A stretch of 42,317 nucleotides of DNA, filler included, from Yuukianura sp. NJ FZ-2021 (taxonomy: Eukaryota): NCBI GenBank assembly GCA_046563655.1. It is 2 parts of 2 records of this genome, joined end to end, with 100 filler letters (N's around TTAATTAATTAA, not from the genome) between each part and the next. Parts side by side here need not be neighbours in the genome. Positions count along the whole stretch, not along the records: positions 1 to 25,000 come from JAJCTO010000021.1; 1 more part is not named here. One strand, written 5' to 3'. Position numbers and translations under genes: made by a program. How positions within the stretch are numbered: the first letter of the stretch is position 1; every line of letters begins with the position of its first letter. The notes beneath the pieces were generated by a model, which worked only from the letters and a program-made list of their open reading frames with translations, ran no database searches and had not been told where the DNA came from. Shown piece after piece: positions 3,347-39,420 of the stretch.

Positions 3347-4639
3347 TTAAACGTCTGGATCTTCTAAGTCGGCATCCATGGCATACTGAACCATGAGCCG
3401 CATAGTTTCCAAAACGTCGTCTCTTTGAAACATACCTAGAACATTGGCCTTTTGATGTTCTACGACAAGTCTGGCAGCATGAGCGGTGATTCTTCCGCAG
3501 TTGGCGTCGGGTCCCATATTCCTGTAATTACGGCTGGGTCGGTAGTTCCAAAATAGAGTGTCACTCCTTCCGAACTTCTTGGCTAGAACTGTACTAACCA
3601 ACAGTCTCATATTTTCAAGAATGTCCGGCTTGAACGTGTCGTACATATACGCTTCCCTGAAAAGATAAAAGTTGATTGTAAAACTTAATGCTTATTTGGT
3701 CATGTATTTTTATTTGTAAACTAACTTACCAGTTGACGATATCAATTACTGCCATCATTAGATGACCCGGAACGTGAACTGGGAGAATTAGAATCTCCGT
3801 GTTGTCCGGAAGAGCCCAGAATGCGACCTCCATAATTGCATATACGTCCCAAGTCGACCTCATGAATTGTCGTACCTGCAAGTCCGTGGTGGAGCAGTCG
3901 AAGCCTTTGCGGATGTCATCTTTTAGGAAGTACGGTGCAACCCTGAACGATACATCTGAATGGATGTACTGGATTCTGTTGTTACCGTTTTGCAGCATCA
4001 ATCGCTGTAAAATATTCAAAATTAGAATAAATACAATAAATAAGAAATTGAAAATCAACCTACCTGCATAAAAACATTAAAGATCGGCATTGGAGTTCCA
4101 AGTTCTGGTTGGTCCTCAAAATCTCGAACCCTCTTCTCCGGAACTTTCGTGAAGTTATGATCATAATAATAGTCGTTGCATTTGATGTCGTACATATATT
4201 CCCTGTCCCAAATCAGCGAGTCAGCTAGAATTTCTGTGCCGGCGTAGCTGAGGTGCGGTAGTGGCTTGGCGTTGGCGGAGTCGATCCAATCCGCCCGATG
4301 TTTTGCTGGAACGTTTTTCATCATGAAGTACGAGTGTACTTCATGAATTCCGCGACGAAGTCGAATCAAATCGTTCACCATGAACCTTAGGAATGTTGGG
4401 TCTGTGGTAGAATTTCTGGAAAAAACAAAACAAACTCTAAATATTACTTTGAAAAAGCTACATTGGAGGTAATTGACTTGGAACATACCTTTGTTTTACA
4501 AATTTGTTGACGACGTCAGTGTAATCGTCCTTGATTTTTCTTGGAATAGACGCCGGCTTCCCACGAACATCAAACAGCAATACTTCCAGTATTTCTTCCC
4601 AGTGTATGGGAAAATAATATGGAAGATCCCGTTCAAAAC
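3347..4639 (-). CDS. Multi-exon Ulp1/SENP-like (C48, clan CE) cysteine protease; 5' exon(s) unresolved
   Basis: Exons 4639-4489, 4415-4064, 4004-3730, 3656-3347 are joined in frame by GT-AG introns 4488-4416, 4063-4005, 3729-3657. Product has IFNVFMQRL..IQYIHS, ILPVHVPGHLMMAVIDIVNWEAYMYDT and GPDANCG: His-Asp-Cys in C48 order. Confidence 0.75.
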
Positions 4640-7005
4640 CTAAAATTACCGTTTTTATCAAAACTTCTAAATCTTAACGTGTTAGCAGTGATTCAGGCAC
4701 AGTTTTCAACGCTGAATCCACTGGTACCTTTAGATTTGGGCTACCATTTGTAGCGCCAAAGTTACAGCAAATTAAAATTTTTTAACTTTTAACAAAATTT
4801 TACGCATAAATTAGTTGTATCTTCTAAAGATACGATCATTAAGACTTTAAAACATCATCATTGACATAGTTTTAGACGTGGAATCCGATGCAATAACCAG
4901 TTTCCTTCCACTATTCATCATTCATGAGTTACAACTAAAAAACGGCAAAACTGAAAAAACTGCAAATTAACTTTTCAAAAGTATCGCCAGCCCCGTATCG
5001 CTCGCCCTCTCTTGAAAAGCTCTTTTCTCGTCGGTAGAGGGAGACACTGGTTGCAAATAGGAGTCTAATAAAACTTAGGGAAATTATCAAAACCTAACCA
5101 ACAAAACTAAAACAAAAATTGAAATAAAAATTAACAACTTGAAATTAAAATTATATACGTATTTCATTGTCGTATTTTCAGACAATGTCAAAAGGATCAG
5201 CGTCTCCCACTCCAGGCCCGTCTAAACGACCATGTCACGTATGTCTTGTCTGTAATGAAAGATTTCAGACCAACGTCCAGCTTCTTATCCACGAGGAAAT
5301 TCAACATCATGACTCTTTAGACAATGAAGAGGAGCAGACACTACCCACCGCACGCGAAATTCTGGACATGTATCGAGAATTGAAGTGTCTGTCTTGTAAT
5401 CAATCGTTTGCCTGTCGAGATGAAATGCAACAGCATTTCTATGACATTCATCCAGACTTTTTCTCAATTAAATCACAAGATGGAGGTCTACGTCCAACAC
5501 CTTTAATACCCATCGAAGTGGAGTTAAGCGTTACATCTCTAAAAGTCGTCAAAGAATACAAAGCAAAATTTGACGAATTCAAGTGTGAAGATGGCGTTGA
5601 CGAGCGAGATTTTTTCAAGTGCGTTTACTCGTCTTCTGTTCATCGGATCAAAGAAGATCGGAAAGAGTGGAAAAACTTAAAGGTTTTTTTCTCCATGGTT
5701 TGCAACTTTACGAAGACTCAAGCCGACGGATCTGTTGAAACAAACCGTGGCTGTTTCACATCATATCGTCATCCATGAAAGCCTTCCAAAGATCTGGACG
5801 ATTATGGGCCACCAAATATCCAACCAAATTGAACACTTTACAAACGAAAGAAGTGGATGGGATTTGGACGGTATAACTGAGTTTAAGTTAGTGACTGCAA
5901 AATACCAATTCACAAAAATTGGAACCTTCATCGAAACACCGTTTCCACTTTCCGAGCATAACAAAACGTTGCTAAAGATAAACAACAGTGAAGTGTCCAT
6001 TTCTAACTCTCACAAGTCTAACTCTCAGTTCTTGCACACAAAAGAATTGCTGGAGTTCCCAACATTAATCGCCACCGCTACAGGGTTGACAAGTTGGTCA
6101 GAACATATGCTCCCCATACATCTAAAGTGAACACACAAGGAATCAAATTTCCAGTAACGATACAGCAGCTCCCTTTATTCGAAAAGCTCAATCCTCGTAT
6201 CTCATTGACAGTTCTCGGTTATGATATGGACGGCCCAGCAGCCCCACCACGTACTCAGCAAAGCAGTCGTAAGAAATCAGGCACTAACAAAAGAGAAGAT
6301 TTGGATTTGTTCAAGTACATGCAATAAAACATTTCCATTCTCTACAATTCAAAAGAGGCCAAACCTATCCATATCGATCTGATGTGTCTCATGCAAGGTA
6401 ACAATTCGCATTTTCTCCTTATTCGAAATCTCGAATCACTCATGTCATCCCCCGATCACAAAGGCTCTAAACACATTTGCCGCAACTGTCTGTCAAACTT
6501 TACCCTTCCAAGAACCCTGAAAGAAATTTGACATCACAAGACAGGAATTTCAGCAGGAAGTCGATAACGGTGGCAACATTGAACTTCTTTTCAAAAAAGC
6601 CGCGTATCCCTATTCACTGATGACATCATGTGAAGACTTTGAGATGACTAGTCTTCCACCAAAAGAAGCATTTTTCAACGACTTAACCGAGTCACCAATT
6701 CAAGACGATGTCTATAATCATGCAAAGAAGGTCTGGGACAGCTTTAACATTGAAAACATGGGACAGTGGCATGACCTCTACGTTCGTCTGGATGTGTCCC
6801 TTCTAGTCGACGTTATGGAGGGAGTGAGGAAGCTGATGATGGACAGTTATGGTCTAGAACTTGGCCATTACTACTCGCTTCCTATGATGGCTATTGATTG
6901 CGCTTTGAAGAAGTCTGGAGTCGTCCTGGATTTGATCACAGACCCAACGATGCATTGCTGGATTGAAGCAGGGATTCGAGGTAAGTAACTTGTGTCACAT
7001 TTAGG

Positions 7006-7023
7006 TAACCTAACCTAACCTAA
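7006..7023. repeat. (TAACC)n tract in PolB intron 6981-7130
   Basis: TAACCTAACCTAACCTAA, immediately preceded by TTAGG. Confidence 0.85.
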
Positions 7024-7276
7024 GAGATCCCTAACCCATATCGGGCGATCTCAGATTGGCCGATATCAGAACGATCTCGGGCGATCTCAGGGACAAAATT
7101 GAAGTGTTTTTTAATTAATTTTCATTTTAGGTGGCTACGTTAGCGTTGGCTCTAGACGGAAAGCAACTGGAAATAATAAATACATGGGAGATGAATACGA
7201 TCCAAATCAACCAATATATTATATAATTTACAGTGATGCGAACAACTTATACGTAAGTGTTTTAAGTTAAACAGGT

Positions 7277-7299
7277 TAACCTAACCTAACCTAACCTAA
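7277..7299. repeat. (TAACC)n tract in PolB intron 7253-7336
   Basis: TAACC x4 plus TAA, preceded by AGGT. Confidence 0.85.
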
Positions 7300-7524
7300 A
7301 TTTATATCAATGTTTTAAGATTGATAATATTTATAGGGCAAATCAATGAGTCTCGCGCTTCCTCTTGGCAACTTTCAATGGTTGACAGAAGAACAAATCA
7401 GAAAAATCTCTGACGATATCAACGCATTTGTAGCTGAAACAGAAAGAAAGAAAAGTGTTGGCTACATGTTGGGGGTAGCATGGTTGGTGTGTGCAAGAAC
7501 GTAAAACGTTCTAGTTTCGAAAGT

Positions 7525-7934
7525 TGAGTCATCGAAATAACTCAAACAAGAATGCAAGGTGAAGGTCCAAAGTATTTGGAAGTTGAGTCATAGAATTAGG
7601 TCGTTAATAAGTCATATAAGAAGGTTAAGTTCAATGATGGCATTTTAATTTGGAAGTCTTATTTGGTACAAAGTCCGATCTGTTTTCAAAGACGAAGGTG
7701 ACTCACACCTTACGTGCACACGTGTGAACAAAGTCCAAAATCGTTTTTGTGTGGTCCACAGTCCGACCCTTTTTCAAGGACGGTGGTGAGTCATGTCCTT
7801 AGGTGCACACGTGGGAACAAAGTCCAGAATCGTATGTTCATCGTCATTTCAATTTGTACTATTAATAGCCGACCCTACAATTAGGTTTTGCGCATGTATA
7901 TATATAGTAACGCTTGAGTTGTGAGAAGTCAGTC
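7525..7934 (+). promoter_or_regulatory. Putative IAP promoter: four AP-1-type sites, two E-boxes, TATA tract, Inr-like TCAGT
   Basis: TGAGTCA at 7525, 7584, 7787; TGACTCA at 7699; CACGTG at 7719, 7808 inside a ~89-bp imperfect duplication; TATATATATA ~7897-7906; TCAGTC at 7929; ATG at 7943. Confidence 0.55.
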
Positions 7935-7942
7935 AAAGGAAT

Positions 7943-8862
7943 ATGGAGGGCCTCATGAGTTATGAGGGGAGATTACAAACGTTTCAGAACGCTCAAGTAA
8001 GATGGCCATTGAATTTTGTGGCCCCGGAAGCATGTTCGTTTGCGGGATTTTACTACCTCGGAGTAGATGACAAGGTGGGTAATTTTCAACTTTTTCTAAA
8101 AAAAAGTAAAAAATTTGGAATAATTTGTTTTCTGTTGAACAGGTTGCGTGTCCATATTGCCGGGGTGTCGTGGGGGAATGGGTGGTTGGTGATGAGCCGT
8201 TGTTGCAGCACCGGAAACATTTCCCACGCTGTCCGTATGTTGTAGTCATGACCGGTCTACTATACGGGGTTGGGTTTGTTACCGTTCCGGATGTCACTGG
8301 GACCCACGGAGCCGAAGCGACCGGAGCAGCGAGGATTGATGTTTTCGAATATGTGACCACAGGAACCGGTATGCCCGGCACGGTAGCTTCTGATGTTTCC
8401 ACCGACCCTGGCCAGAGGGGAATAGATGCTGCCGGTGCTGGGACGAGAGGAACCGACATGGCCGCAGCAGCAGCCGCCCCCGAAACCGACATGGCCGGCG
8501 CGGGAAGAACCGCGCCTGAAACCGACATCCCCAGCGATGGAGGAGCCGATTTGGCCGGGTCGGCAACACGTTACGTGGCAGAAATAACTAGCCTCGAAAC
8601 TGATATTCCCAGTGTGGGTGGAAGTGATGTTGCCGGGACATCTGAACATGTTTCAAGTGCGGCATCCGGCGTTTTTGTTTCTGGTGTTACCAGAGACGAC
8701 TCTGGCAACAGTATTTCTTGTAAGATTTGCTGGGACAAAGAAGCCTGCGACGTATTCTTGCCATGTAAACATTTGGTTGCTTGTCCTACATGTTCATTGT
8801 CATTAAGAAGTTGTGCAGTTTGCCGAGAACCTATACTAATTAGATTAAGGGTGTATACTTAG
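7943..8862 (+). CDS. iap: Inhibitor of apoptosis protein, single BIR plus C-terminal RING, two exons (~283 aa)
   Basis: Exons 7943-8074 and 8143-8862 with a phase-0 GT-AG intron give BIR RLQTF..WP..AGFYYLGVDDKVACPYC..W..GDEPLLQHRKHFPRC and RING CKICWDKEACDVFLPCKHLVACPTC..CAVCR; AATAAA at 8985. Confidence 0.93.
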
Positions 8863-8949: not shown

Positions 8950-9108
8950 TGTTGCTGCGAGTTCGAATCCAACATTGAGAAATGAATAAAAAATAATTTG
9001 ATTCAAGTTTGTGTGTTTTCGTTTGACCTACGTTTTGTCATTTACTATTTAATGAAGTGAAATTTTTGAGTAAATTAACATTTGTTGTGAAAGATAAGAA
9101 GAGGAAGC

Positions 9109-9327
9109 ATGGAAGGGATCCGGAGATTTAAGTGTGACAATTGTGGTGACCGTTTCGATTCGCAAGATTCCTTTTGGGATCACGCTTTTGAACGTCATGT
9201 TGGCGTCTGCTGCGTAGGCTTAGTAGCCATAAGATTCTATCTTATTGAGATTGGGAGAGATGCGGCGAGTGGAGTCGCGGGAGTTTTGAGAGTTGGCGAG
9301 GTAGAGAGAGAGATTCAGTTAGTTTAG
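9109..9327 (+). CDS. Small protein with one C2H2 zinc finger
   Basis: FKCDNCGDRFDSQDSFWDHAFERH matches C-x2-C-x3-F-x8-H-x4-H; AATAAA at 9388. Confidence 0.55.
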   Translation: MEGIRRFKCDNCGDRFDSQDSFWDHAFERHVGVCCVGLVAIRFYLIEIGRDAASGVAGVLRVGEVEREIQLV

Positions 9328-9558: not shown

Positions 9559-12500
9559 GTTGCTGTGTCGTCCCTCATCTCGTGACCCTTTATTTATGAA
9601 AATTTGTGTCGAAACAAATCATTCAAAAAAACCTCCACGCGGAGCGATGCCGGGTGAAAATGAGTAACTTTTCTGAAATCCTCCTGAAAAGTACTACAGG
9701 AACCCAAGTTTAATTGGCGTGGATAGATCGCAATTAAATCTGGTTAGAGCGTACTTAAAAGTCTGAATGAAACGCTCAACTTCGGATTTTATCTCGGGTT
9801 GGAATACGGCACCCAGGGCAATGTCGAGCACCATTTTGACACAAAACGACTTAAATTTGTGAGAGTAAACATGCAAATGTGAGAATGAACAGAAAGTAAA
9901 TTTCATTTTTGAAATCCTCATAATAAGTGCTACAGGAACCCACTTTCACTTGCTGTGTCGTCCATCATCTTGTTACCTTTATTTATGAAAATTCATGTTT
10001 CAAAACAAAGAATTCAAAAGAAATGCATTCCGGAACGATGCTGGGTAAAAGTCAACTATATTTTTGGAATCCTCATAAAAAGTGCTACAGGAACCCACGT
10101 TCATTTGCTGTGTCGTCCCTCATCTCGTGACCCTTTTCTTATGAAAATTTGTTTCAAAACAAATCAATCGAAAAACCTCCACGAGGAGCGATGACGGGCG
10201 AAAATGAGTTACTTTTTTGAAATCCTCCTGAAAAGTACTACAGGTACCCACGTTCAGTAGCTGTGTCGTCCCTCATCTCGTGACCCTTTATTTATGAAAA
10301 TTTGTGTCGAAACAAATCATTCAAAGAAACCTCCACGCGGAGCGATGCCGGGTGAAAATGAGTAACTTTTCTGAAATCCTCCTGAAAAGTACTACAGGAA
10401 CCCAAGTTTAATTGGCGTGGATAGATCGCAATTAAATCTGGTTAGAGCGTACTTAAAAGTCTGAATGAAACGCTCAACTTCGGATTTTATCTCGGGTTGG
10501 AATACGGCACCCAGGGCAATGTCGAGCACCATTTTGACACAAAACGACTTAAATTTGTGAGAGTAAACATGCAAATGTGAGAATGAACAGAAAGTAAATT
10601 ACATTTTTGAAATCCTCATAAAAAGTGCTACAGGAACCCACTTTCACTTGCTGTGTCGTCCATCATCTTGTTACCTTTATTTATGAAAATCCATGTTTCA
10701 AAACAAAGAATTCAAAAGAAATGCATTCCGGAACGATGCTGGGTAAAAGTCAACTATATTTTTGGAATCCTCATAAAAAGTGCTACAGGAACCCACGTTC
10801 ATTTGCTGTGTCGTCCCTCATCTCGTGACCCTTTATTTATGAAAATTTGTGTCGAAACAAATCATTCAAAGAAACCTCCACGCGGAGCGATGCCGGGTGA
10901 AAATGAGTAACTTTTCTGAAATCCTCCTGAAAAGTACTACAGGAACCCAAGTTTAATTGGCGTGGATAGATCGCAATTAAATCTGGTTAGAGCGTACTTA
11001 AAAGTCTGAATGAAACGCTCAACTTCGGATTTTATCTCGGGTTGGAATACGGCACCCAGGGCAATGTCGAGCACCATTTTGACACAAAACGACTTAAATT
11101 TGTGAGAGTAAACATGCAAATGTGAGAATGAACAGAAAGTAAATTTCATTTTTGAAATCCTCATAAAAAGTGCTACAGGAACCCACTTTCACTTGCTGTG
11201 TCGTCCATCATCTTGTTACCTTTATTTATGAAAATTCATGTTTCAAAACAAAGAATTCAAAAGAAATGCATTCCGGAACGATGCTGGGTAAAAGTCAACT
11301 ATATTTTTGGAATCCTCATAAAAAGTGCTACAGGAACCCACGTTCATTTGCTGTGTCGTCCCTCATCTCGTGACCCTTTTCTTATGAAAATTTGTTTCAA
11401 AACAAGTCAATCGAAAAACCTCCACGAGGAGCGATGACGGGCGAAAATGAGTTACTTTTTTGAAATCCTCCTGAAAAGTACTACAGGTACCCACGTTCAG
11501 TTGCTGTGTCGTCCCTCATCTCGTGACCCTTTATTTATGAAAATTTGTGTCGAAACAAATCATTCAAAGAAACCTCCACGCGGTGCGATGCCGGGTGAAA
11601 ATGAGTAACTTTTCTGAAATCCTCCTGAAAAGTACTACAGGAACCCAAGTTTAATTGGCGTGGATAGATCGCAATTAAATCTGGTTAGAGCGTACTTAAA
11701 AGTCTGAATGAAACGCTCAACTTCGGATTTTATCTCGGGTTGGAATACGGCACCCAGGGCAATGTCGAGCACCATTTTGACACAAAACGACTTAAATTTG
11801 TGAGAGTAAACATGCAAATGTGAGAATGAACAGAAAGTAAATTTCATTTTTGAAATCCTCATAAAAAGTGCTACAGGAACCCACTTTCACTTGCTGTGTC
11901 GTCCATCATCTTGTTACCTTTATTTATGAAAATTCATGTTTCAAAACAAAGAATTCAAAAGAAATGCATTCCGGAACGATGCTGGGTAAAAGTCAACTAT
12001 ATTTTTGGAATCCTCATAAAAAGTGCTACAGGAACCCACGTTCATTTGCTGTGTCGTCCCTCATCTCGTGACCCTTTTCTTATGAAAATTTGTTTCAAAA
12101 CAAGTCAATCGAAAAACCTCCACGAGGAGCGATGACGGGCGAAAATGAGTTACTTTTTTGAAATCCTCCTGAAAAGTACTACAGGTACCCACGTTCAGTT
12201 GCTGTGTCGTCCCTCATCTCGTGACCCTTTATTTATGAAAATTTGTGTCGAAACAAATCATTCAAAGAAACCTCCACGCGGAGCGATGCCGGGTGAAAAT
12301 GAGTAACTTTTCTGAAATCCTCCTGAAAAGTACTACAGGAACCCAAGTTTAATTGGCGTGGATAGATCGCAATTAAATCTGGTTAGAGCGTACTTAAAAG
12401 TCTGAATGAAACGCTCAACTTCGGATTTTATCTCGGGTTGGAATACGGCACCCAGGGCAATGTCGAGCACCATTTTGACACAAAACGACTTAAATTTGTG

Positions 12501-15500
12501 AGAGTAAACATGCAAATGTGAGAATGAACAGAAAGTAAATTACATTTTTGAAATACTCATAAAAAGTGCTACAGGAACCCACTTTCACTTGCTGTGTCGT
12601 CCATCATCTTGTTACCTTTATTTATGAAAATCCATGTTTCAAAACAAAGAATTCAAAAGAAATGCATTCCGGAACGATGCTGGGTAAAAGTCAACTATAT
12701 TTTTGGAATCCTCATAAAAAGTGCTACAGGAACCCACGTTCATTTGCTGTGTCGTCCCTCATCTCGTGACCCTTTATTTATGAGAATTTGTGTCGAAACA
12801 AATCATTCAAAGAAACCTCCACGCGGAGCGATGCCGGGTGAAAATGAGTAACTTTTCTGAAATCCTCCTGAAAAGTACTACAGGAACCCAAGTTTAATTG
12901 GCGTGGATAGATCGCAATTAAATCTGGTTAGAGCGTACTTAAAAGTCTGAATGAAACGCTCAACTTCGGATTTTATCTCGGGTTGGAATACGGCACCCAG
13001 GGCAATGTCGAGCACCATTTTGACACAAAACGACTTAAATTTGTGAGAGTAAACATGCAAATGTGAGAATGAACAGAAAGTAAATTTCATTTTTGAAATC
13101 CTCATAAAAAGTGCTACAGGAACCCACTTTCACTTGCTGTGTCGTCCATCATCTTGTTATCTTTATTTATGAAAATTCATGTTTCAAAACAAAGAATTCA
13201 AAAGAAATGCATTCCGGAACGATGCTGGGTAAAAGTCAACTATATTTTTGGAATCCTCATAAAAAGTGCTACAGGAACCCACGTTCATTTGCTGTGTCGT
13301 CCCTCATCTCGTGACCCTTTTCTTATGAAAATTTGTTTCAAAACAAATCAATCGAAAAACCTCCACGAGGAGCGATGACGGGCGAAAATGAGTTACTTTT
13401 TTGAAATCCTCCTGAAAAGTACTTCAGGTACCCACGTTCAGTAGCTGTGTCGTCCCTCATCTCGTGACCCTTTATTTATGAAAATTTGTGTCGAAACAAA
13501 TCATTCAAAGAAACCTCCACGCGGAGCGATGCCGGGTGAAAATGAGTAACTTTTCTGAAATCCTGCTGAAAAGTACTACAGGAACCAAAGTTTAATTGGC
13601 GTGGATAGATTGCAATTAAATCTGGTTAGAGCGTGCTTAAAAGTCTGAATGAACCGCTCAAAAACGGATTTTATCTCGGGTTGGAATACGGCACCCAGGG
13701 CAATGTCGAGCACCATTTTGACACAAAACGACTTAAATTTGTGAGAGTGAACATGCAAATGTGAAAATGAACAGAAAGTAAATTACATTTTTGAAATCCT
13801 CATAAAAAGTGCTACAGGAACCCACTTTCACTTGCTGTGTCGTCCATCATCTTGTTACCTTTATTTATGAAAATCCATGTTTCAAAACAAAGAATTCAAA
13901 AGAAATGCATTCCGGAACGATGCTGGGTAAAAGTCAACTATAGTTTTGGAATCCTCATAAAAAGTGCTACAGGAACCCACGTTCATTTGCTGTGTCGTCC
14001 CTCATCTCGTGACCCTTTATTTATGAAAATTTGTGTCGAAACAAATCATTCAAAAAAACCTCCACGCGTAGCGATGCCGGGTGAAAATGAGTAACTTTTC
14101 TGAAATCCTCCTGAAAAGTACTACAGGAACCCAAGTTTAATTGGCGTGGATAGATCGCAATTAAATCTGGTTAGAGCGTACTTAAAAGTCTGAATGAAAC
14201 GCTCAACTTCGGATTTTATCTCGGGTTGGAATACGGCACCCAGGGCAATGTCGAGCACCATTTTGACACAAAACGACTTAAATTTGTGAGAGTAAACATG
14301 CAAATGTGAGAATGAACAGAAAGTAAATTTCATTTTTGAAATCCTCATAAAAAGTGCTACAGGAACCCACTTTCACTTGCTGTGTCGTCCATCATCTTGT
14401 TACCTTTATTTATGAAAATTCATGTTTCAAAACAAAGAATTCAAAAGAAATGCATTCCGGAACGATGCTGGGTAAAAGTTATTTATATTTTTGGAATCCT
14501 CATAAAAAGTGCTACAGGAACCCACGTTCAGTTGCTATGTCGTCCCTCATCTCGTGACCCTTTTTTATGAAAATTTGTTTCAAAACAAATCAATCGAAAA
14601 ACCTCCACGCGGAGCGATGCCGGGCGAAAATGAGTTACTTTTCTGAAATCCTGCTGAAAAGTACTACAGGAACCAAAGTTTAATTGGCGTGGATAGATTG
14701 CAATTAAATCTGGTTAGAGCGTACTTAAAAGTCTGAATGAAACGCTCAACTTCGGATTTTATCTCGGGTTGGAATACGGCACCCAGGGCAATGTCGAGCA
14801 CCATTTTGACACAAAACGACTTAAATTTGTGAGAGTGAACATGCAAATGTGAGAATGAACAGAAAGTAAATTACATTTTTGAAATCCTCATAAAAAGTGC
14901 TACAGGAACCCGCTTTCACTTGCTGTGTCGTCCATCATCTTGTTACCTTTATTTATGAAAATTCATGTTTCAAAACAAAAAATTCAAAAGAAATGCATTC
15001 CGGAACGATGCTGGGTAAAAGTCAACTATACTTTTGAAATCCTCATAAAAAGTGCTACAGGAACCCACGTTCAGTTGCTGTGTCGTCCCTCATCTCGTGA
15101 CCCTTTTTTTATGAAAATTTGTTTCAAAACAAAGAATTCAAAAAACCTCCACGCGGAGCGATGCCGGGCGAAAATGAGTTACTTTTCTGAAATCCTGCTG
15201 AAAAGTACTACAGGAACCAAAGTTTAATTGGCGTGGATAGATTGCAATTAAATCTGGTTAGAGCGTACTTAAAAGTCTGAATGAAACGCTCAACTTCGGA
15301 TTTTATCTCGGGTTGGCATACGGCACCCAGGGCAATGTCGAGCACCATTTTGACACAAAACGACTTAAATTTGTGAGAGTGAACATGCAAATGTGAGAAT
15401 GAACAGAAAGTAAATTACATTTTTGAAATCCTCATAAAAAGTGCTACAGGAACCCACTTTCACTTGCTGTGTCGTCCATCATCTTGTTACCTTTATTTAT

Positions 15501-18500
15501 GAAAATTCATGTTTCAAAACAAAAAATTCAAAAGAAATGCATTCCGGAACGATGCTGGGTAAAAGTCAACTATATTATTGAAATCCTCATAAAAAGTGCT
15601 ACAGGAACCCACTTTCACTTGCTGTGTCGTCCATCATCTTGTTACTTTATTTATGAAAATTCATGTTTCAAAACAAAGAATTCAAAAGAAATGCCATTCC
15701 GGAACGATGCTGGGTAAAAGTCATTTATATTTTTGGAATCCTCATAAAAAGTGCTACAGGAACCCACGTTCAGTTGCTGTGTCGTCCCTCATCTCGTGAC
15801 CCTTTTTTTATGAAAATTTGTTTCAAAACAAAGAATTCAAAAGAAATGCATTCCGGAACGATGCTGGGTAAAAGCCATTTATATTTTTGGAATCCTCATA
15901 AAAAGTGCTACAGGAACCCACGTTCAGTTGCTGTGTCGTCCCTCATCTCGTGACCCTTTTTTATGAAAATTTGTTTCAAAACAAATCAATCGAAAAACCT
16001 CCACGCGGAGCGATGCCGGGCGAAAATGAGTTACTTTTTTGAAATCCTCCTGAAAAGTACTACAGGAACCCACGTTCATTTGCTGTGTCGTCCCTCATCT
16101 CGTGACCCTTTATTTATGAAAATTTGTGTCGAAACAAATCATTCAAAGAAACCTCCACGCGGAGCGATGCCGGGTGAAAATGAGTAACTTTTCTGAAATC
16201 CTCCTGAAAAGTACTACAGGAACCCAAGTTTAATTGGCGTGGATAGATCGCAATTAAATCTGGTTAGAGCGTACTTAAAAGTCTGAATGAAGCGCTCAAC
16301 TTCGGATTTTATCTCGGGTTGGAATACGGCACCCAGGGCAATGTCGAGCACCATTTTGACACAAAACGACTTAAATTTGTGAGAGTAAACATGCAAATGT
16401 GAGAATGAACAGAAAGTAAATTTCATTTTTGAAATCCTCATAAAAAGTGCTACAGGAACCCACTTTCACTTGCTGTGTCGTCCATCATCTTGTTATCTTT
16501 ATTTATGAAAATTCATGTTTCAAAACAAAGAATTCAAAAGAAATGCATTCCGGAACGATGCTGGGTAAAAGTCAACTATATTTTTGGAATCCTCATAAAA
16601 AGTGCTACAGGAACCCACGTTCATTTGCTGTGTCGTCCCTCATCTCGTGACCCTTTTCTTATGAAAATTTGTTTCAAAACAAGTCAATCGAAAAACCTCC
16701 ACGAGGAGCGATGACGGGCGAAAATGAGTTACTTTTTTGAAATCCTCCTGAAAAGTACTACAGGTACCCACGTTCAGTTGCTGTGTCGTCCCTCATCTCG
16801 TGACCCTTTATTTATGAAAATTTGTGTCGAAACAAATCATTCAAAGAAACCTCCACGCGGAGCGATGCCGGGTGAAAATGAGTAACTTTTCTGAAATCCT
16901 CCTGAAAAGTACTACAGGAACCCAAGTTTAATTGGCTTGGATAGATCGCAATTAAATCTGGTTAGAGCGTACTTAAAAGTCTGAATGAAACGCTCAACTT
17001 CGGATTTTATCTCGGGTTGGCATACGGCACCCAGGGCAATGTCGAGCACCATTTTGACACAAAACGACTTAAATTTGTGAGAGTGAACATGCAAATGTGA
17101 GAATGAACAGAAAGTAAATTACATTTTTGAAATCCTCATAAAAAGTGCTACAGGAACCCACTTTCACTTGCTGTGTCGTCCATCATCTTGTTACCTTTAT
17201 TTATGAAAATTCATGTTTCAAAACAAAAAATTCAAAAGAAATGCATTCCGGAACGATGCTGGGTAAAAGTCAACTATATTTTTGAAATCCTCATAAAAAG
17301 TGCTACAGGAACCCACTTTCACTTGCTGTGTCGTCCATCATCTTGTTACCTTTATTTATGAAAATTCATGTTTCAAAACAAAGAATTCAAAAGAAATGCA
17401 TTCCGGAACGATGCTGGGTAAAAGTCATTTATATTTTTGGAATCCTCATAAAAAGTGCTACAGGAACCCACGTTCAGTTGCTGTGTCGTCCCTCATCTCG
17501 TGACCCTTTTTTTATGAAAATTTGTTTCAAAACAAAGAATTCAAAAGAAATGCATTCCGGAACGATGCTGGGTAAAAGCCATTTATATTTTTGGAATCCT
17601 CATAAAAAGTGCTACAGGAACCCACGTTCAGTTGCTGTGTCGTCCCTCATCTCGTGACCCTTTTTTATGAAAATTTGTTTCAAAACAAATCAATCGAAAA
17701 ACCTCCACGCGGAGCGATGCCGGGCGAAAATGAGTTACTTTTCTGAAATCCTCCTGAAAAGTACTACAGGAACCCACGTTCATTTGCTGTGTCGTCCCTC
17801 ATCTCGTGACCCTTTATTTATGAAAATTTGTGTCGAAACAAATCATTCAAAGAAACCTCCACGCGGAGCGATGCCGGGTGAAAATGAGTAACTTTTCTGA
17901 AATCCTCCTGAAAAGTACTACAGGAACCCAAGTTTAATTGGCGTGGATAGATCGCAATTAAATCTGGTTAGAGCGTACTTAAAAGTCTGAATGAAGCGCT
18001 CAACTTCGGATTTTATCTCGGGTTGGAATACGGCACCCAGGGCAATGTCGAGCACCATTTTGACACAAAACGACTTAAATTTGTGAGAGTAAACATGCAA
18101 ATGTGAGAATGAACAGAAAGTAAATTTCATTTTTGAAATCCTCATAAAAAGTGCTACAGGAACCCACTTTCACTTGCTGTGTCGTCCATCATCTTGTTAT
18201 CTTTATTTATGAAAATTCATGTTTCAAAACAAAGAATTCAAAAGAAATGCATTCCGGAACGATGCTGGGTAAAAGTCAACTATATTTTTGGAATCCTCAT
18301 AAAAAGTGCTACAGGAACCCACGTTCATTTGCTGTGTCGTCCCTCATCTCGTGACCCTTTTCTTATGAAAATTTGTTTCAAAACAAAGTCAATCGAAAAA
18401 CCTCCACGAGGAGCGATGACGGGCGAAAATGAGTTACTTTTTTGAAATCCTCCTGAAAAGTACTACAGGTACCCACGTTCAGTTGCTGTGTCGTCCCTCA

Positions 18501-21500
18501 TCTCGTGACCCTTTATTTATGAAAATTTGTGTCGAAACAAATCATTCAAAGAAACCTCCACGCGGAGCGATGCCGGGTGAAAATGAGTAACTTTTCTGAA
18601 ATCCTCCTGAAAAGTACTACAGGAACCCAAGTTTAATTGGCGTGGATAGATCGCAATTAAATCTGGTTAGAGCGTACTTAAAAGTCTGAATGAAACGCTC
18701 AACTTCGGATTTTATCTTGGGTTGGCATACGGCACCCAGGGCAATGTCGAGCACCATTTTGACACAAAACGACTTAAATTTGTGAGAGTGAACATGCAAA
18801 TGTGAGAATGAACAGAAAGTAAATTACATTTTTGAAATCCTCATAAAAAGTGCTACAGGAACCCACTTTCACTTGCTGTGTCGTCCATCATCTTGTTACC
18901 TTTATTTATGAAAATTCATGTTTCAAAACAAAAAATTCAAAAGAAATGCATTCCGGAACGATGCTGGGTAAAAGTCAACTATATTATTGAAATCCTCATA
19001 AAAAGTGCTACAGAAACCCACTTTCACTTGCTGTGTCGTCCATCATCTTGTTACCTTTATTTATGAAAATTCATGTTTCAAAACAAAGAATTCAAAAGAA
19101 ATGCATTCCGGAACGATGCTGGGTAAAAGTCATTTATATTTTTGGAATCCTCATAAAAAGTGCTACAGGAACCCACGTTCAGTTGCTGTGTCGTCCCTCA
19201 TCTCGTGACCCTTTTTTTATGAAAATTTGTTTCAAAACAAAGAATTCAAAAGAAATGCATTCCGGAACGATGCTGGGTAAAAGCCATTTATATTTTTGGA
19301 ATCCTCATAAAAAGTGCTACAGGAACCCACGTTCAGTTGCTGTGTCGTCCCTCATCTCGTGACCCTTTTTTTATGAAAATTTGTTTCAAAACAAATCAAT
19401 CGAAAAACCTCCACGCGGAGCGATGCCGGGCGAAAATGAGTTACTTTTTTGAAATCCTCCTGAAAAGTACTACAGGAACCCACGTTCATTTGCTGTGTCG
19501 TCCCTCATCTCGTGACCCTTTATGAAAATTTGTGTCGAAACAAATCATTCAAAGAAACCTCCACGCGGAGCGATGCCGGGTGAAAATGAGTAACTTTTCT
19601 GAAATCCTCCTGAAAAGTACTACAGGAACCCAAGTTTAATTGGCGTGGATAGATCGCAATTAAATCTGGTTAGAGCGTGCTTAAAAGTCTGAATGAACCG
19701 CTCAAAAACGGATTTTATCTCGGGTTGGAATACGGCACCCAGGGCAATGTCGAGCACCATTTTGACACAAAACGACTTAAATTTGTGAGAGTGAACATGC
19801 AAATGTGAAAATGAACAGAAAGTAAATTACATTTTTGAAATCCTCATAAAAAGTGCTACAGGAACCCACTTTCACTTGCTGTGTCGTCCATCATCTTGTT
19901 ACCTTTATTTATGAAAATTCCATGTTTCAAAACAAAGAATTCAAAAGAAATGCATTCCGGAACGATGCTGGGTAAAAGTCAACTATAGTTTTGGAATCCT
20001 CATAAAAAGTGCTACAGGAACCCACGTTCATTTGCTGTGTCGTCCCTCATCTCGTGACCCTTTATTTATGAAAATTTGTGTCAAAACAAATCATTCAAAA
20101 AAACCTCCACGCGTAGCGATGCCGGGTGAAAATGAGTAACTTTTCTGAAATCCTCCTGAAAAGTACTACAGGAACCCAAGTTTAATTGGCGTGGATAGAT
20201 CGCAATTAAATCTGGTTAGAGCGTACTTAAAAGTCTGAATGAAACGCTCAACTTCGGATTTTATCTCGGGTTGGAATACGGCACCCAGGGCAATGTCGAG
20301 CACCATTTTGACACAAAACGACTTAAATTTGTGAGAGTAAACATGCAAATGTGAGAATGAACAGAAAGTAAATTTCATTTTTGAAATCCTCATAAAAAGT
20401 GCTACAGGAACCCACTTTCACTTGCTGTGTCGTCCATCATCTTGTTACCTTTATTTATGAAAATTCATGTTTCAAAACAAAGAATTCAAAAGAAATGCAT
20501 TCCGGAACGATGCTGGGTAAAAGTTATTTATATTTTTGGAATCCTCATAAAAAGTGCTACAGGAACCCACGTTCAGTTGCTATGTCGTCCCTCATCTCGT
20601 GACCCTTTTTTATGAAAATTTGTTTCAAAACAAATCAATCGAAAAACCTCCACGCGGAGCGATGCCGGGCGAAAATGAGTTACTTTTCTGAAATCCTGCT
20701 GAAAAGTACTACAGGAACCAAAGTTTAATTGGCGTGGATAGATTGCAATTAAATCTGGTTAGAGCGTACTTAAAAGTCTGAATGAAACGCTCAACTTCGG
20801 ATTTTATCTCGGGTTGGAATACGGCACCCAGGGCAATGTCGAGCACCATTTTGACACAAAACGACTTAAATTTGTGAGAGTGAACATGCAAATGTGAGAA
20901 TGAACAGAAAGTAAATTACATTTTTGAAATCCTCATAAAAAGTGCTACAGGAACCCGCTTTCACTTGCTGTGTCGTCCATCATCTTGTTACCTTTATTTA
21001 TGAAAATTCATGTTTCAAAACAAAAAATTCAAAAGAAATGCATTCCGGAACGATGCTGGGTAAAAGTCAACTATACTTTTGAAATCCTCATAAAAAGTGC
21101 TACAGGAACCCACGTTCAGTTGCTGTGTCGTCCCTCATCTCGTGACCCTTTTTTTATGAAAATTTGTTTCAAAACGAATCAATCGAAAAACCTCCACGCG
21201 GAGCGATGCCGGGCGAAAATGAGTTACTTTTCTGAAATCCTGCTGAAAAGTACTACAGGAACCAAAGTTTAATTGGCGTGGATATATTGCAATTAAATCT
21301 GGTTAGAGCGTACTTAAAAGTCTGAATGAAACGCTCAACTTCGGATTTTATCTCGGGTTGGAATACGGCACCCAGGGCAATGTCGAGCACCATTTTGACA
21401 CAAAACGACTTAAATTTGTGAGAGTGAACATGAAAATGTGAGAATGAACAGAAAGTAAATTACATTTTTGAAATCCTCATAAAAAGTGCTACAGGAACCC

Positions 21501-24500
21501 ACTTTCACTTGCTGTGTCGTCCATCATCTTGTTACCTTTATTTATGAAAATTCATGTTTCAAAACAAAAAATTCAAAAGAAATGCATTCCGGAACGATGC
21601 TGGGTAAAAGTCAACTATATTATTGAAATCCTCATAAAAAGTGCTACAGGAACCCACTTTCACTTGCTGTGTCGTCCATCATCTTGTTACTTTATTTATA
21701 AAAATTTATGTTTCAAAACAAAGAATTCAAAAGAAATGCATTCCGGAACGATGCTGGGTAAAAGTCATTTATATTTTTGGAATCCTCATAAAAAGTGCTA
21801 CAGGAACCCACGTTCAGTTGCTGTGTCGTCCCTCATCTCGTGACCCTTTTTTTATGAAAATTTGTTTCAAAACAAAGAATTCAAAAGAAATGCATTCCGG
21901 AACGATGCTGGGTAAAAGCCATTTATATTTTTGGAATCCTCATAAAAAGTGCTACAGGAACCCACGTTCAGTTGCTGTGTCGTCCCTCATCTCGTGACCC
22001 TTTTTTATGAAAATTTGTTTCAAAACAAATCAATCGAAAAACCTCCACGCGGAGCGATGCCGGGCGAAAATGAGTAACTTTTCTGAAATCCTCCTGAAAA
22101 GTACTACAGGAACCCAAGTTTAATTGGCGTGGATAGATCGCAATTTAATCTGGTTAGAGCGTACTTAAAAGTCTGAATGAAACGCTCAACTTCGGATTTT
22201 ATCTCGGGTTGGAATACGGCACCCAGGGCAATGTCGAGCACCATTTTGACACAAAACGACTTAAATTTGTGAGAGTAAACATGCAAATGTGAGAATGAAC
22301 AGAAAGTAAATTTCATTTTTGAAATCCTCATAAAAAGTGCTACAGGAACCCACTTTCACTTGCTGTGTCGTCCATCATCTTGTTATCTTTATTTATGAAA
22401 ATTCATGTTTCAAAACAAAGAATTCAAAAGAAATGCATTCCGGAACGATGCTGGGTAAAAGTCAACTATATTTTGGAAATCCTCATAAAAAGTGCTACAG
22501 GAACCCACGTTCATTTGCTGTGTCGTCCCTCATCTCGTGACCCTTTTCTTATGAAAATTTGTTTCAAAACAAGTCAATCGAAAAACCTCCACGAGGAGCG
22601 ATGACGGGCGAAAATGAGTTACTTTTTTGAAATCCTCCTGAAAAGTACTACAGGTACCCACGTTCAGTTGCTGTGTCGTCCCTCATCTCGTGACCCTTTA
22701 TTTATGAAAATTTGTGTCGAAACAAATCATTCAAAGAAACCTCCACGCGGAGCGATGCCGGGTGAAAATGAGTAACTTTTCTGAAATCCTCCTGAAAAGT
22801 ACTACAGGAACCCAAGTTTAATTGGCGTGGATAGATCGCAATTAAATCTGGTTAGAGCGTACTTAAAAGTCTGAATGAAACGCTCAACTTCGGATTTTAT
22901 CTTGGGTTGGCATACGGCACCCAGGGCAATGTCGAGCACCATTTTGACACAAAACGACTTAAATTTGTGAGAGTGAACATGCAAATGTGAGAATGAACAG
23001 AAAGTAAATTACATTTTTGAAATCCTCATAAAAAGTGCTACAGGAACCCACTTTCACTTGCTGTGTCGTCCATCATCTTGTTACCTTTATTTATGAAAAT
23101 TCATGTTTCAAAACAAAAAATTCAAAAGAAATGCATTCCGGAACGATGCTGGGTAAAAGTCAACTATATTATTGAAATCCTCATAAAAAGTGCTACAGGA
23201 ACCCACTTTCACTTGCTGTGTCGTCCATCATCTTGTTACTTTATTTATAAAAATTTATGTTTCAAAACAAAGAATTCAAAAGAAATGCATTCCGGAACGA
23301 TGCTGGGTAAAAGTCATTTATATTTTTGGAATCCTCATAAAAAGTGCTACAAGAACCCACGTTCAGTTGCTGTGTCGTCCCTCATCTCGTGACCCTTTTT
23401 TTATGAAAATTTGTTTCAAAACAAAGAATTCAAAAGAAATGCATTCCGGAACGATGCTGGGTAAAAGCCATTTATATTTTTGGAATCCTCATAAAAAGTG
23501 CTACAGGAACCCACGTTCAGTTGCTGTGTCGTCCCTCATCTCGTGACCCTTTTTTATAAAAATTTTTTTCAAAACAAATCACACGAAAAACCTCCACGCG
23601 GAGCGATGCCGGGCGAAAATGAGTTACTTTTCTGAAATCCTCCTGAAAAGTACTACAGGAACCCACGTTCATTTGCTGTGTCGTCCCTCATCTCGTGACC
23701 CTTTATTTATGAAAATTTGTGTCGAAACAAATCATTCAAAGAAACCTCCACGCGGAGCGATGCCGGGTGAAAATGAGTAACTTTTCTGAAATCCTCCTGA
23801 AAAGTACTACAGGAACCCAAGTTTAATTGGCGTGGATAGATCGCAATTAAATCTGGTTAGAGCGTGCTTAAAAGTCTGAATGAACCGCTCAAAAACGGAT
23901 TTTATCTCGGGTTGGAATACGGCACCCAGGGCAATGTCGAGCACCATTTTGACACAAAACGACTTAAATTTGTGAGAGTGAACATGCAAATGTGAAAATG
24001 AACAGAAAGTAAATTACATTTTTGAAATCCTCATAAAAAGTGCTACAGGAACCCACTTTCACTTGCTGTGTCGTCCATCATCTTGTTACCTTTATTTATG
24101 AAAATCCATGTTTCAAAACAAAGAATTCAAAAGAAATGCATTCCGGAACGATGCTGGGTAAAAGTCAACTATAGTTTTGGAATCCTCATAAAAAGTGCTA
24201 CAGGAACCCACGTTCATTTGCTGTGTCGTCCCTCATCTCGTGACCCTTTATTTATGAAAATTTGTGTCGAAACAAATCATTCAAAAAAACCTCCACGCGT
24301 AGCGATGCCGGGTGAAAATGAGTAACTTTTCTGAAATCCTCCTGAAAAGTACTACAGGAACCCAAGTTTAATTGGCGTGGATAGATCGCAATTTAATCTG
24401 GTTAGAGCGTACTTAAAAGTCTGAATGAAACGCTCAACTTCGGATTTTATCTCGGGTTGGAATACGGCACCCAGGGCAATGTCGAGCACCATTTTGACAC

Positions 24501-25000
24501 AAAACGACTTAAATTTGTGAGAGTAAACATGCAAATGTGAGAATGAACAGAAAGTAAATTTCATTTTTGAAATCCTCATAAAAAGTGCTACAGGAACCCA
24601 CTTTCACTTGCTGTGTCGTCCATAATCTTGTTATCTTTATTTGTGAAAATTCATGTTTCAAAACAAAGAATTCAAAAGAAATGCATTCCGGAACGATGCT
24701 GGGTAAAAGTCAACTATATTTTTGGAATCCTCATAAAAAGTGCTACAGGAACCCACGTTCATTTGCTGTGTCGTCCCTCATCTCGTGACCCTTTTCTTAT
24801 GAAAATTTGTTTCAAAACAAGTCAATCGAAAAACCTCCACGAGGAGCGATGACGGGCGAAAATGAGTTACTTTTTTGAAATCCTCCTGAAAAGTACTACA
24901 GGTACCCACGTTCAGTTGCTGTGTCGTCCCTCATCTCGTGACCCTTTATTTATGAAAATTTGTGTCGAAACAAATCATTCAAAGAAACCTCCACGCGGAG
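9559..25000. repeat. Composite satellite of ~154-bp subunit variants and a ~236-bp subunit; higher-order units of ~545, 698, 851 and 1005 bp
   Basis: Every subunit ends in GAAATCCTC(A/C)T(A/G)AAAAGT(G/A)CTACAGG(A/T)ACC(C/A)A; the 236-bp subunit occurs 22 times, separated by 2-5 of the 154-bp subunits; array runs into the gap. Confidence 0.97.
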
Positions 25001-25100
25001 NNNNNNNNNNNNNNNNNNNNNNNNNNNNNNNNNNNNNNNNNNNNTTAATTAATTAANNNNNNNNNNNNNNNNNNNNNNNNNNNNNNNNNNNNNNNNNNNN
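25001..25100. other. Assembly gap with artificial six-frame-stop linker
   Basis: 44 N + TTAATTAATTAA (25045-25056) + 44 N = exactly 100 bp. Confidence 0.95.
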
Positions 25101-33258: not shown

Positions 33259-33589
33259 AGTAGTAATCACGTAGGGACTACTACCAAAAAACGTAAACAA
33301 AACATGACCTCGTTTTTCGAAATGAACTCTGTCAGTACATGTGCACTGACGGAGTTGACGAGACAATGATTATGATGTCATCAATTTTCCCACACGAGGC
33401 TGCCTCTGTGAGATCCACCATCCTCCCTCTCACACAAATTCTTTTGTACTTAAGAGTTGGGAGGAAACCAGGAGGGGAGATTGACTGCATTTTCATTACT
33501 TTGCTCCAAACTTACCATTAGGCAAATGCATGCAAGTGGGTGAGTTTAGTTGATTACCAACTTAGAAGCAGTGTACATATACAACGAAA

Positions 33590-36500: not shown

Positions 36501-38101
36501 TCATTACGTGACCCTTCCAGGAATTGCATACGATGCTGCAATGTTGGATTGGAAGAGTCGATTATGACTACTTGAAAGTGGATGACATGTACATGTGGTG
36601 TGAGAGGGGAATTCGTGGTGGAAATTGTGCTGTGGGGCTTCGATATGCAAAAGCAAACAATCCTTACATGGGAGCTCAATACGACCCGTCGAAACCACTA
36701 AGCTACTTGTGCTTGTTGGACGCCAATCTTCTCTACAGCACATGTTTGAGATGCTTTGTTCCTTGGAAGAATTTCCGCTGGGATCCGAGCTTTGAAGCAC
36801 GAACCGCAGATTTGGAGAGTGCAGTTGCAAGAATTTTGAGGATGGGAGATGAGGAGAGAGAAGAGCTCGTTTTGGAAGTTGACTTGGACTATCCAGATGA
36901 ACTGCATGATCAGCACAATGACTATCCACTGGCAGTAGAACGAGGAATGATTGAATATGAAAACTTGCCCCCCTACACAAAAAACGTGATGGAAAATTTG
37001 GGTGTTAGACCGACCTCAGTCAACAAATCGAAACTGATGGGCACCTTTTACCCAAAAAAAATTACATTATCCACTACAGACTGCTCAAGTTGTTTTTGCA
37101 GTTGGGACTCAAGTTGACAAAAATCCACCGAGGTCTTCGTTTCACACAAGCACCACTTATGTGAGCACCCCTACATTGAAATGTGCATCGAGAGAAGGAG
37201 AAGTGCCACGAATCCGGTTGATGTGAAATTTTGGAAAGCGATGGGAAACATTGTGTTTGGGAAACTGTTGCAAAATGTTCGAAAGCACAAGAGAATCAAC
37301 ATTGCGCTGACTCGTCAAAAAGTTTTCGAGTATGGAAAAAAACCAACTGTGAAACGTTTCAAAATTTTACACGAAGAGTGTGTTTTGTTCATGATGAAAA
37401 AGCTTTCAGTATGTTTAAATAAGCACATAAGTGCTGGACTTACAGTTTTGGATGACAGCAAACGAATCATGTACGATTTCTACTACAATGTCATGCCGAA
37501 AAAGTATGGCGAAAACATGAGACTGGTTATGACGGACACGGACAGTCTCCTGTTGCACATCAAGACTCCAGATCTCTACCAAGACTTTTACCAAATGACC
37601 CAAGATCCAGACTGCCGACTCGACACTTCCAACTATGATCCCAAGCATCCAACCCTCGGACACTTGTCTTCCCAGCAACATCAAGGAAAGTGTGGCTACT
37701 TCAAGGACGAATTTGCCAATTCAATTGTAACTGAGGTTGTTGCACTCAAGCCAAAACTGTACTGCGTCCGCTCTCTGGACCAGAATAACATCGTCTCGGA
37801 CCGAAAAAAGCCAAGGGCACGGTGAGAGCTGCGGTGAGGAATCAACTTCCGTTTTGATGACTATCTTCGTGTGCTGGATGAGTCATCTTCACTCAGTGTT
37901 AGGATGACCACAATTCGAAGTTTGGACCACCGAGTTTACACAACGACCGTATGCAAGCAGAGCCTTGCTGCATTGGAGGACAAGTCTGGCTACTACATCT
38001 CCCCAATCGAGTCTCTCCGATTTGGTCACTACCAAATCCCAATGTACCAACAAGAAGAAGAAGAAGAACAACAACAAGACGAACAAATGCAACAAGTTTA
38101 A
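33590..38101 (+). pseudogene. polB: Protein-primed family B DNA polymerase with spliced three-finger C2H2 leader and endonuclease VII-like insert; several frameshifts
   Basis: Exons 33590-33707, 33769-33843, 33930-34070, 34140-34217, 34287 onward. Motifs: GSGW, NIRNVDEFCF, ExoI VIVCDFE (~35520), CIHC..DHCHLTGRIRGVSCNNCN, ExoII HNFRNYD, KGVYPY, ExoIII YVKLDV, GIRGG, A LDANLLY, B KAMGNIVFGK, C TDTDS, GYFKDE, LKPKLY, terminal RFGHY. Confidence 0.95.
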
Positions 38102-38195
38102 GTTATTATTTAAGCCAATTAAATAAAAATTTAAATTTTAGTTTGAATTTAACCGTTTGACCAAACACAAGTGTTTTTTTTAAGTTGTAGTAGAG

Positions 38196-38854: not shown

Positions 38855-38913
38855 ATTCAAGGTAACTTACCCCTCAAGTTCGTTTGAGTTCAAGTAGTCC
38901 TTGAACTAGACAG

Positions 38914-39405: not shown

Positions 39406-39420
39406 CCGCGGACTTCAAGG

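Follow-up and report, generated by a model that had tools for sequence, protein, structure and literature searches.

TAACC telomere-type runs in two introns of a dead Maverick-type polymerase copy from Yuukianura, and their possible origin as repair scars

Two intron-like interruptions of a degraded DNA polymerase gene in the Yuukianura sp. NJ FZ-2021 assembly (GCA_046563655.1) each carry a short, exact run of TAACC, the complement of TTAGG, which is described in the literature as the arthropod telomere motif. The gene is the left of two protein-primed family-B DNA polymerase genes in the stretch of 42,317 nt that was analysed (the window, two parts joined end to end); it has a C2H2 zinc-finger N-terminus, occupies 5186..7476 on the plus strand and is a dead copy. 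We found that positionally homologous introns in relatives are free of such runs, and we give about an even chance to the reading that the TAACC runs are later break-repair scars (short interstitial telomeric sequences) inside pre-existing introns of this now-dead Maverick-type polymerase copy. Overall, the case would be a further example of known phenomena and is of modest interest, and for the window's own dead fragment this account is not established.

Two introns and their TAACC tracts

Intron 1 (6981..7130, plus strand) is 150 nt long, runs from GTAAGT to TTTTAG (GTAAGTAAC at its start and TTTCATTTTAG at its end) and lies in phase 1 at an AG|GT site. The exon upstream (6527..6980, plus strand), which is 62-67% identical to the relatives P0001-P0004, ends ...HCWIEAGIR plus G, the first base of a Gly codon; its last bases are ...att cga g, and exon 2 opens at 7131 with gt ggc tac, the intron splitting the first Gly codon of GIRGGY after base 1. 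Exon 2 (7131..7252, plus strand) translates as (G)GYVSVGSRRKATGNNKYMGDEYDPNQPIYYIIYSDANNLY and closes with tta tac. Intron 2 (7253..7336, plus strand) is 84 nt long, runs from GTAAGT to TTATAG (GTAAGTGTT to ATATTTATAG) and lies in phase 0 inside the conserved D-A-N-N-L-Y-G block, between the Tyr and Gly codons of DANNLYGKSMS; exon 3 then opens at 7337 with ggc aaa tca atg. The exon 3 remnant (7337..7476, plus strand) reads GKSMSLALPLGNFQWL...GYMLGV, after which homology stops, and run X3 has loose ends at 7475/7476.

An earlier note on this DNA had described introns at 6981-7130 and 7253-7336 that split GIRG/G and DANNLY/GKSMS, and we found its coordinates, GTAAGT starts and frame restoration to be right. 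Aligned to P0001, P0003 and P0004, the exon translations join GIRG|GYVS and DANNLY|GKSMS without an indel; the lengths of both introns are divisible by three, and both contain in-frame stops. Of the features that mark U2-type GT-AG introns, consensus-like GT and AG ends, T/A-rich 3' ends and exact frame restoration are present in both, and the same position in homologues was found for intron 1, whereas the introns of homologues closest to intron 2 are displaced by 2 nt and 4 nt. The homologous stretch of the right-hand polymerase (36611..36748, plus strand) aligns as one tblastn segment, uninterrupted at both sites, as had also been claimed. The D, N, L, Y and G of the DANNLYG block are invariant in six relatives, and we take DANNLY to be polymerase motif A from its likeness to the motif DxxSLYPS; sequence searches of solved structures with P0001 and with a six-member profile gave 0 matches, and the label is not tied to a solved polymerase. 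Judged from sequence, both interruptions look like genuine spliceosomal-type introns.

Lesions of the left copy were scored against P0003 (1043 residues), using tblastn of P0003 and P0001 on the window together with a map of open reading frames (ORFs). The frame changes near 5762-5772 and again near 6004-6022, positions 6325-6327 form an in-frame stop, a deletion at ~6526 has removed ~272 residues (the nuclease-like insert and the exonuclease domain of relatives), and the 3' end is truncated, with no homology beyond ~7476. A zf-C2H2_4 match on the left copy (E 3.6e-5) is below cut-off, and Pfam gave no match on the left exon pieces. The left polymerase is a dead, internally deleted, 3'-truncated member of a multicopy family. 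Contigs from DNA runs of organism A (X1-X3) and organism B (X4) hold many diverged copies of this family, and some of these continue beyond 7476 and beyond the deletion point. Sister copies in both organisms (X1, X2 and X4) have 233 coding nt deleted (5838 to 6072), with an 8-nt telomere-like filler, AACCTAAC, in the gap. The filler has the strand orientation of the intron tracts.

Among the relatives, P0004 (63% identical to the window exon) passes Pfam DNA_pol_B_2 (PF03175, gathering score 25.8 bits) with 29.9 bits and P0006 (52%) with 66.8 bits; the right copy, at 22.6 bits, falls short of the cut-off. In the nearest Atlas clusters, which occur most often in Arthropoda, C2H2, endonuclease VII and DNA_pol_B_2 are found together. 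Viral contigs scanned with the polymerase protein alignment gave no relative, and the pattern of GTAAGT followed by a tract gave one match per orientation in them, both in unrelated intergenic-looking DNA and uninformative.

A gene this damaged raises the thought that the inserts are not introns at all and are chance insertions that look like introns by accident: the gene is a pseudogene with four other lesions besides its truncation, and both inserts are multiples of three. We hold this to be very improbable, given perfect GTAAGT and AG ends, nucleotide-exact excision and positions that are the same or nearly the same as those of introns in relatives under purifying selection.

The tracts themselves are exact. 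Tandem Repeats Finder gave (TAACC)3.6 at 7006..7023 in intron 1 and (TAACC)4.6 at 7277..7299 in intron 2 (both plus strand, 100% match). A TAACC 15-mer with at most one mismatch was found only in the two tracts (three overlapping matches versus 0.01 expected; 0/100 shuffles reached three), and a regular expression for at least two units returned only these two plus-strand tracts in the 42-kb window, with no tract of at least two units in G-strand orientation anywhere in it. Both tracts are on the coding strand, 25-26 nt past the 5' splice site. By our own arithmetic, two randomly placed tracts would both fall inside these 234 intron nt with P ~3e-5. The view that the tracts are the telomere motif and are placed non-randomly is supported.

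Each tract begins at a palindrome. At 7001..7013 (plus strand), one G-strand unit of the 13-nt TTAGGT-A-ACCTAA opposes the first bases of the C-strand tract, and the arm next to it is ATTTAGGT (inverted-repeat pair I4). At 7273..7282 (plus strand), the perfect 10-nt palindrome AGGTTAACCT, a reverse self-match, sets one G-strand unit abutting the C-strand tract. We estimate a chance probability of ~1e-3 for each of these head-to-head junctions. Six bases 3' of the intron-1 tract lies a degenerate CCCTAACCC (7029..7037, plus strand), and just beyond, at 7038..7090 (plus strand), a 17-nt unit (ATATCGGGCGATCTCAG-like) occurs three times, together with a 14-nt inverted pair (D1 and I1). Repair footprints are hence seen at both tracts, as palindromic junctions, and intron 1 adds the triplication and the inverted pair.

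Intron 1 is longer than the introns of relatives because its 17-nt unit is present in three copies, and with these direct and inverted copies it has an unusually stable RNA fold (z = -2.98). Removing the tract leaves intron 2 at ~60 nt, and removing the tract and the triplication leaves intron 1 at ~80 nt. These trimmed sizes are within the 62-106 nt of relatives' introns; hence, both appear to be ordinary short introns that were enlarged later.

The junctions also bear on whether the tracts are an ordinary host microsatellite, i.e. (AACCT)n as a common dispersed repeat that gathers in short introns, perhaps with a strand bias, in which case two such runs would have no particular meaning for these introns. 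Slippage alone does not make head-to-head junctions, the window is poor in simple repeats, with no other tract of at least two units in 42 kb of mostly non-coding DNA, and a third homology-supported intron (8075-8142, in a BIR/RING gene) has no tract. This reading is unlikely but has precedents: PMC7878876 describes (AACCT)n as a numerous genome-wide simple repeat in penaeid shrimp, and PMC3152781 reports strand-biased intron repeats in Daphnia. The sole 'AACCT' found in the Daphnia tandem-repeat paper is an unrelated 10-mer. Stops in the tracts would also bar a microsatellite from persisting in exons.

We found AGG(T)(TAACC)n to be all that introns 1 and 2 have in common. Neither the leaders nor the tails of the two match better than shuffled sequence (1311/2000 and 1635/2000 shuffles did as well), and no second copy of the non-tract sequence of either intron was found in the window or in 12 loci of relatives. 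Gene conversion between the two introns was ruled out, there being no flanking homology. Since they are alike in the tract only, the small intron-generating element that the earlier note had proposed is unsupported.

An intron-generating transposon, or a small mobile element with telomere-like repeats, that left one copy per intron is accordingly a very weak contender. Such transposons occur in dinoflagellate Maverick/Polinton-like elements, according to PMC11957031, and a 9-nt direct repeat, TGTTTTAAG (family D6), flanks the tract region of intron 2. Without the segment bracketed by D6, however, the intron would be 30 nt long, which is below the size of animal introns. Terminal inverted repeats are missing, as are target duplications that match between the two introns; the repeats at the intron edges are only AG|GT for intron 1 and a 5-nt TTATA for intron 2, which also has the internal 9-nt repeat.

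Tandem TAACC was also said to spell the branch-point sequence CTAAC. It does so by inspection, but the use of this sequence as a branch point fails for intron 1, where 107 nt separate the end of the tract from the 3' splice site, more than the usual range. In intron 2 this distance is 37 nt, and the CTAAC inside the tract may serve as a branch point there. We consider it most unlikely that the C-strand runs are selected cis-elements, placed close to the 5' splice site to direct splicing or silencing or to bind a protein. The equal strand and 5' splice site offset in both introns, and the place of the intron-2 tract, would fit such a role; the distance in intron 1, the absence of the tract from 9/9 relative introns, the lack of any evidence of conservation and the failure to find a precedent in the open-access literature argue against it.

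Patchy introns in relatives of the polymerase

A metagenome scan gave 12 loci (L001-L012) that encode relatives, on which P0001 was mapped by tblastn and the gaps were read. At site 1 (6980/6981), all 12 loci provide coverage; five are interrupted and seven are not. L002 (62 nt, GTTTGT...AG) and L004 (68 nt, donor reading GA) have an intron at the codon and phase of window intron 1; in L005 and L012 (92 nt) and in L006 (65 nt), the intron is in the second Gly codon, 3 nt farther downstream. The organism B contig reads AIRG|GTAAGTTTTTATTAAAT at this site (loose end 6967), with the intron at the position of window intron 1. At site 2 (7252/7253), covered by 10/12 loci, L007 alone has an interruption, a 106-nt intron (GTAAGT...AG) that lies 4 nt upstream, in the Leu codon in phase 2. 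With the right-hand copy uninterrupted at both sites, five of 12 loci interrupted at the first site and one of 10 at the second, intron presence is patchy among relatives.

Protein sequences of relatives gave the same mixed picture. P0001 and P0004 are continuous across both sites, and P0002 (the L002 product) and P0012 (from an L004-like contig) run off at site 1. P0003 is intact across site 1 and past DANNL reads CKCTH..., which back-translates to T|GTAAGTGT; this GTAAGTGT-like read-through probably marks an intron 2 nt upstream of window intron 2, in the Tyr codon in phase 1. Another subfamily in organism A has no interruption at site 1 (GIRGGYVSV) and apparently none at site 2, and nearly every synonymous position differs between this intron-free subfamily and the window copy. 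Two further intron places are found in relatives, one in L001, L002 and L004 and one in L006 and L012. The near-coincident but distinct positions are thus the first versus the second Gly codon in GIRGG and, in DANNLYG, Leu phase 2, Tyr phase 1 and after Tyr.

We found a TAACC-type 8-mer in 0/9 relative introns; five matches occur in 39 kb of the relative loci, all outside introns. The earlier note had tied its view of the introns' origin to the presence of such tracts in homologous introns, and this result speaks against that view.

Reading frames in the intron-bearing relatives evolved under strong purifying selection. Over the 453-nt exon, L001, L002 and L004 differ pairwise by a synonymous divergence (dS) of 0.82-0.96, with a ratio of non-synonymous to synonymous divergence (dN/dS) of 0.037-0.045; the exons of L002 and L004 give 0.84 and 0.045, and L001, which has no site-1 intron, is equally constrained. 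The introns of L002 and L004 can still be aligned (48 matches in 74 columns, with many indels), and L005 and L006 have a diverged common intron (51/96). The frame is kept at such distances despite stop-containing inserts; hence, the inserts of relatives must have been removed by splicing. This is indirect evidence, from relatives only, that intron-bearing members were functional for a long time, and it does not extend to the window's pseudogene.

A tree of the upstream exon (21 rows) places all intron-bearing rows in one well-supported clade of 12 (98/95), with patchy states inside. Site 1a needs two changes on the tree, and the well-supported branches still allow one origin. The window copy pairs weakly with intron-free P0004, apart from L002 and L004. 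One old intron with precise losses and small slides cannot be told apart here from repeated gains at AG|GT-type hot spots. We regard the patchy, near-coincident introns of this polymerase clade as a more promising lead than the tracts; the clade is a compact system for weighing repeated hot-spot gain against loss and sliding.

Break repair in older introns versus intron birth

If the TAACC runs are repair scars, this copy would have inherited its introns from a lineage of Maverick/Polinton-type protein-primed DNA polymerase genes that was functional at the time and already had introns. It would since have died, and the runs would be newer than the introns. Telomerase, or copying off a telomere, would have put TTAGG repeats onto broken ends, and the ends would then have been joined head-to-head, so that about one G-strand unit came to face three to four units of the C strand. 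Imprecise repair would also have duplicated the neighbouring 17-nt unit in intron 1. Because every frame of the run has a stop codon, tract survival would have been limited to introns while the gene was in use. We infer that the host splices transcripts of the family and has TTAGG telomeres, as well as how and when the repair took place.

Several points weigh against this reading. The empty (tract-free) version of these very introns was not found in the DNA-run contigs, and the contigs that cover the tracts may stem from the assembly's own sample; secondary insertion at this locus is deduced from sequences of relatives in unknown hosts. Random breaks should mark the rest of the ~42-kb, mostly non-coding window, and there is no tract there. 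Both tracts have the same orientation and a near-equal offset of 25-26 nt from the 5' splice site, which hints at a common cause beyond random breakage. Intron positions in relatives differ in part (by 3, 2 and 4 nt), and intron 2 is without an exact match; given these offsets and the weakly supported placement on the tree, independent gains at hot spots are possible. TTAGG is only presumed to be the telomere repeat of this host, and the copy is a pseudogene, so present-day splicing is not inferable from the window.

The clustering of two tracts in 234 nt, with a common strand and a common offset, is not predicted by random breakage. Possible answers are scars in an active ancestor, of which only intronic ones were tolerated and then spread, a common host repeat, a function, or the birth of introns together with their tracts.

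The last of these would have at least intron 2 arise from a break in coding sequence that was healed by telomerase-made filler carrying splice signals. No relative has an intron exactly at the intron-2 site (the nearest are displaced by 2 nt, in P0003, and by 4 nt, in one of 10 loci), TTATA(C/G) is at both edges of intron 2, and telomere-like filler spans the deletion in sister copies. Intron-free paralogues also exist in the same genome (X1 and X2 with loose end 6966 reading GIRGGYVSV; X3 with a joint from 7204 to 7329), but these are the other subfamily, different at nearly all synonymous sites, and not an empty allele. A perfect GTAAGT and a T-rich AG end from random filler, twice, would be improbable, and the exact position of intron 1 is common to the tract-free introns of L002, L004 and organism B. 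Hence, the claim of the earlier note that the introns came from telomere-repeat insertion is unsupported for intron 1 and unproven for intron 2, and we think intron birth with the tract quite unlikely.

Bolder still, and to our mind a long shot, is the idea that the events which left the telomere runs also created or re-created the introns. In an arthropod-type host, breaks in the coding sequence of a replicating Maverick-like element would have been healed by two-sided telomerase addition with filler, giving rise again and again to spliceable introns, with GIRGG and DANNLYG as hot spots. If true, it would account for the 2-4-nt scatter of positions and for the telomere-like deletion filler. 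In the open-access papers searched we found nothing that links telomere repeats with intron gain, nor TTAGG-type tracts in arthropod introns.

Neighbouring features and known systems

Directly downstream of the truncated polymerase is a BIR and RING (IAP-like) gene (7925-8862, plus strand) with an Ala/Gly/Thr-rich middle. Its 68-nt GT-AG intron (8075-8142), which has no TAACC tract, splits the BIR domain, and the gene is nearly identical in contigs of organism B. Between the truncation and this gene lies an 89-bp tandem repeat in two copies (7664-7833). Farther on, a short plus-strand ORF (9091-9220) has the C2H2-like motif FKCDNCGDRF...HAFERH, resembling the zinc-finger N-termini of the polymerases, and may be another element fragment. 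Upstream of the polymerase there is a 349-bp tandem repeat in four copies (570-2054, 93% matches) with internal AATGTCACAA decamers, and a minus-strand ORF (3726-4076) that ends ...ILILPVHVPGHLMMAVIDIVNW and has no Pfam match at E < 0.01. We take this end to resemble Ulp1/adenain-type cysteine protease motifs, presumably common in Mavericks.

Composite satellites fill ~23 kb (9700-25000 and 25100-33100), with 153-155-bp units interleaved with a 21-bp motif and then a ~510-bp unit repeated ~16 times; runs of N (25001-25044 and 25057-25100) stand at the switch between satellites. The ~510-bp unit contains the telomere-like AACCCTAAGTTAAACCTAAAT. A link between intron 2 and this satellite was rejected, the 10-mer and 9-mer flank matches at 25402-25417 being at chance level and the satellite itself telomere-like there. 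In the right-hand Maverick-like block (33566-40068), C2H2-rich N-terminal ORFs are accompanied by a polymerase that has an endonuclease-VII-like insert and by an unassigned ORF at 38308-38854. We found its polymerase to be degraded (a frame change at ~36512-36575, stops at 37115 and 37826) and on a different family branch of the tree from the left copy. The block also holds an rve-type integrase (39421-40068, minus strand) that scores 31 bits against a cut-off of 32.6.

Three kinds of known systems invite comparison, besides a case in Daphnia. Li et al. in 2009 reportedly found intron gains by break repair in Daphnia populations, with parallel gains at the same sites. Presence/absence variation and neighbouring positions are features that this case is said to have as well, the positions being 3, 2 and 4 nt apart in the relatives here; unlike in Daphnia, relatives were compared here and not a population sample, and gain, loss and sliding are not separable.

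The family is like Maverick/Polinton elements in that P0004 and P0006 pass DNA_pol_B_2, the right-hand element joins a polymerase with a candidate rve-type integrase, and the family is multicopy. The left copy differs in having no recognisable integrase or capsid genes beside it. Intact vertebrate Mavericks are reported to be intron-free (PMC8097293); in contrast, this clade has several patchy introns, a C2H2 N-terminus and an endonuclease-VII-like insert.

Dinoflagellate intron-generating transposons (PMC11957031) offer a parallel in that introns are present in genes of virus-like elements and vary among copies. Those introners are families of near-identical inserts, whereas the window introns are unrelated except for the telomere run, and no further copies were found in the window or in the 12 loci.

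The closest parallel to repair scars is the short interstitial telomeric sequence of vertebrates. Work by Nergadze and Giulotto attributes these to break repair in primates, rodents and horse (PMC7215372; PMC2246262). Insertion is a single event at a repaired break, frequently accompanied by deletion, duplication or inversion of the flanks and occasionally by a head-to-head arrangement, and in the set described in PMC7215372 none was in an exon and 31% were in introns. Unlike the mammalian sequences, the window tracts have a 5-nt motif of arthropod type, come as a pair with 270 nt between the two events, in adjacent introns of one mobile-element gene, and both have a one-unit facing arm, and there is no empty allele to prove a single step. 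Like them, the window tracts have few exact units, an internal site, an intron location and head-to-head pieces, with flank duplications in intron 1. If the tracts are indeed repair scars, they would be a tidy invertebrate case of telomere repeats patching internal breaks, so far mostly mammalian, in which only introns would tolerate the patch.

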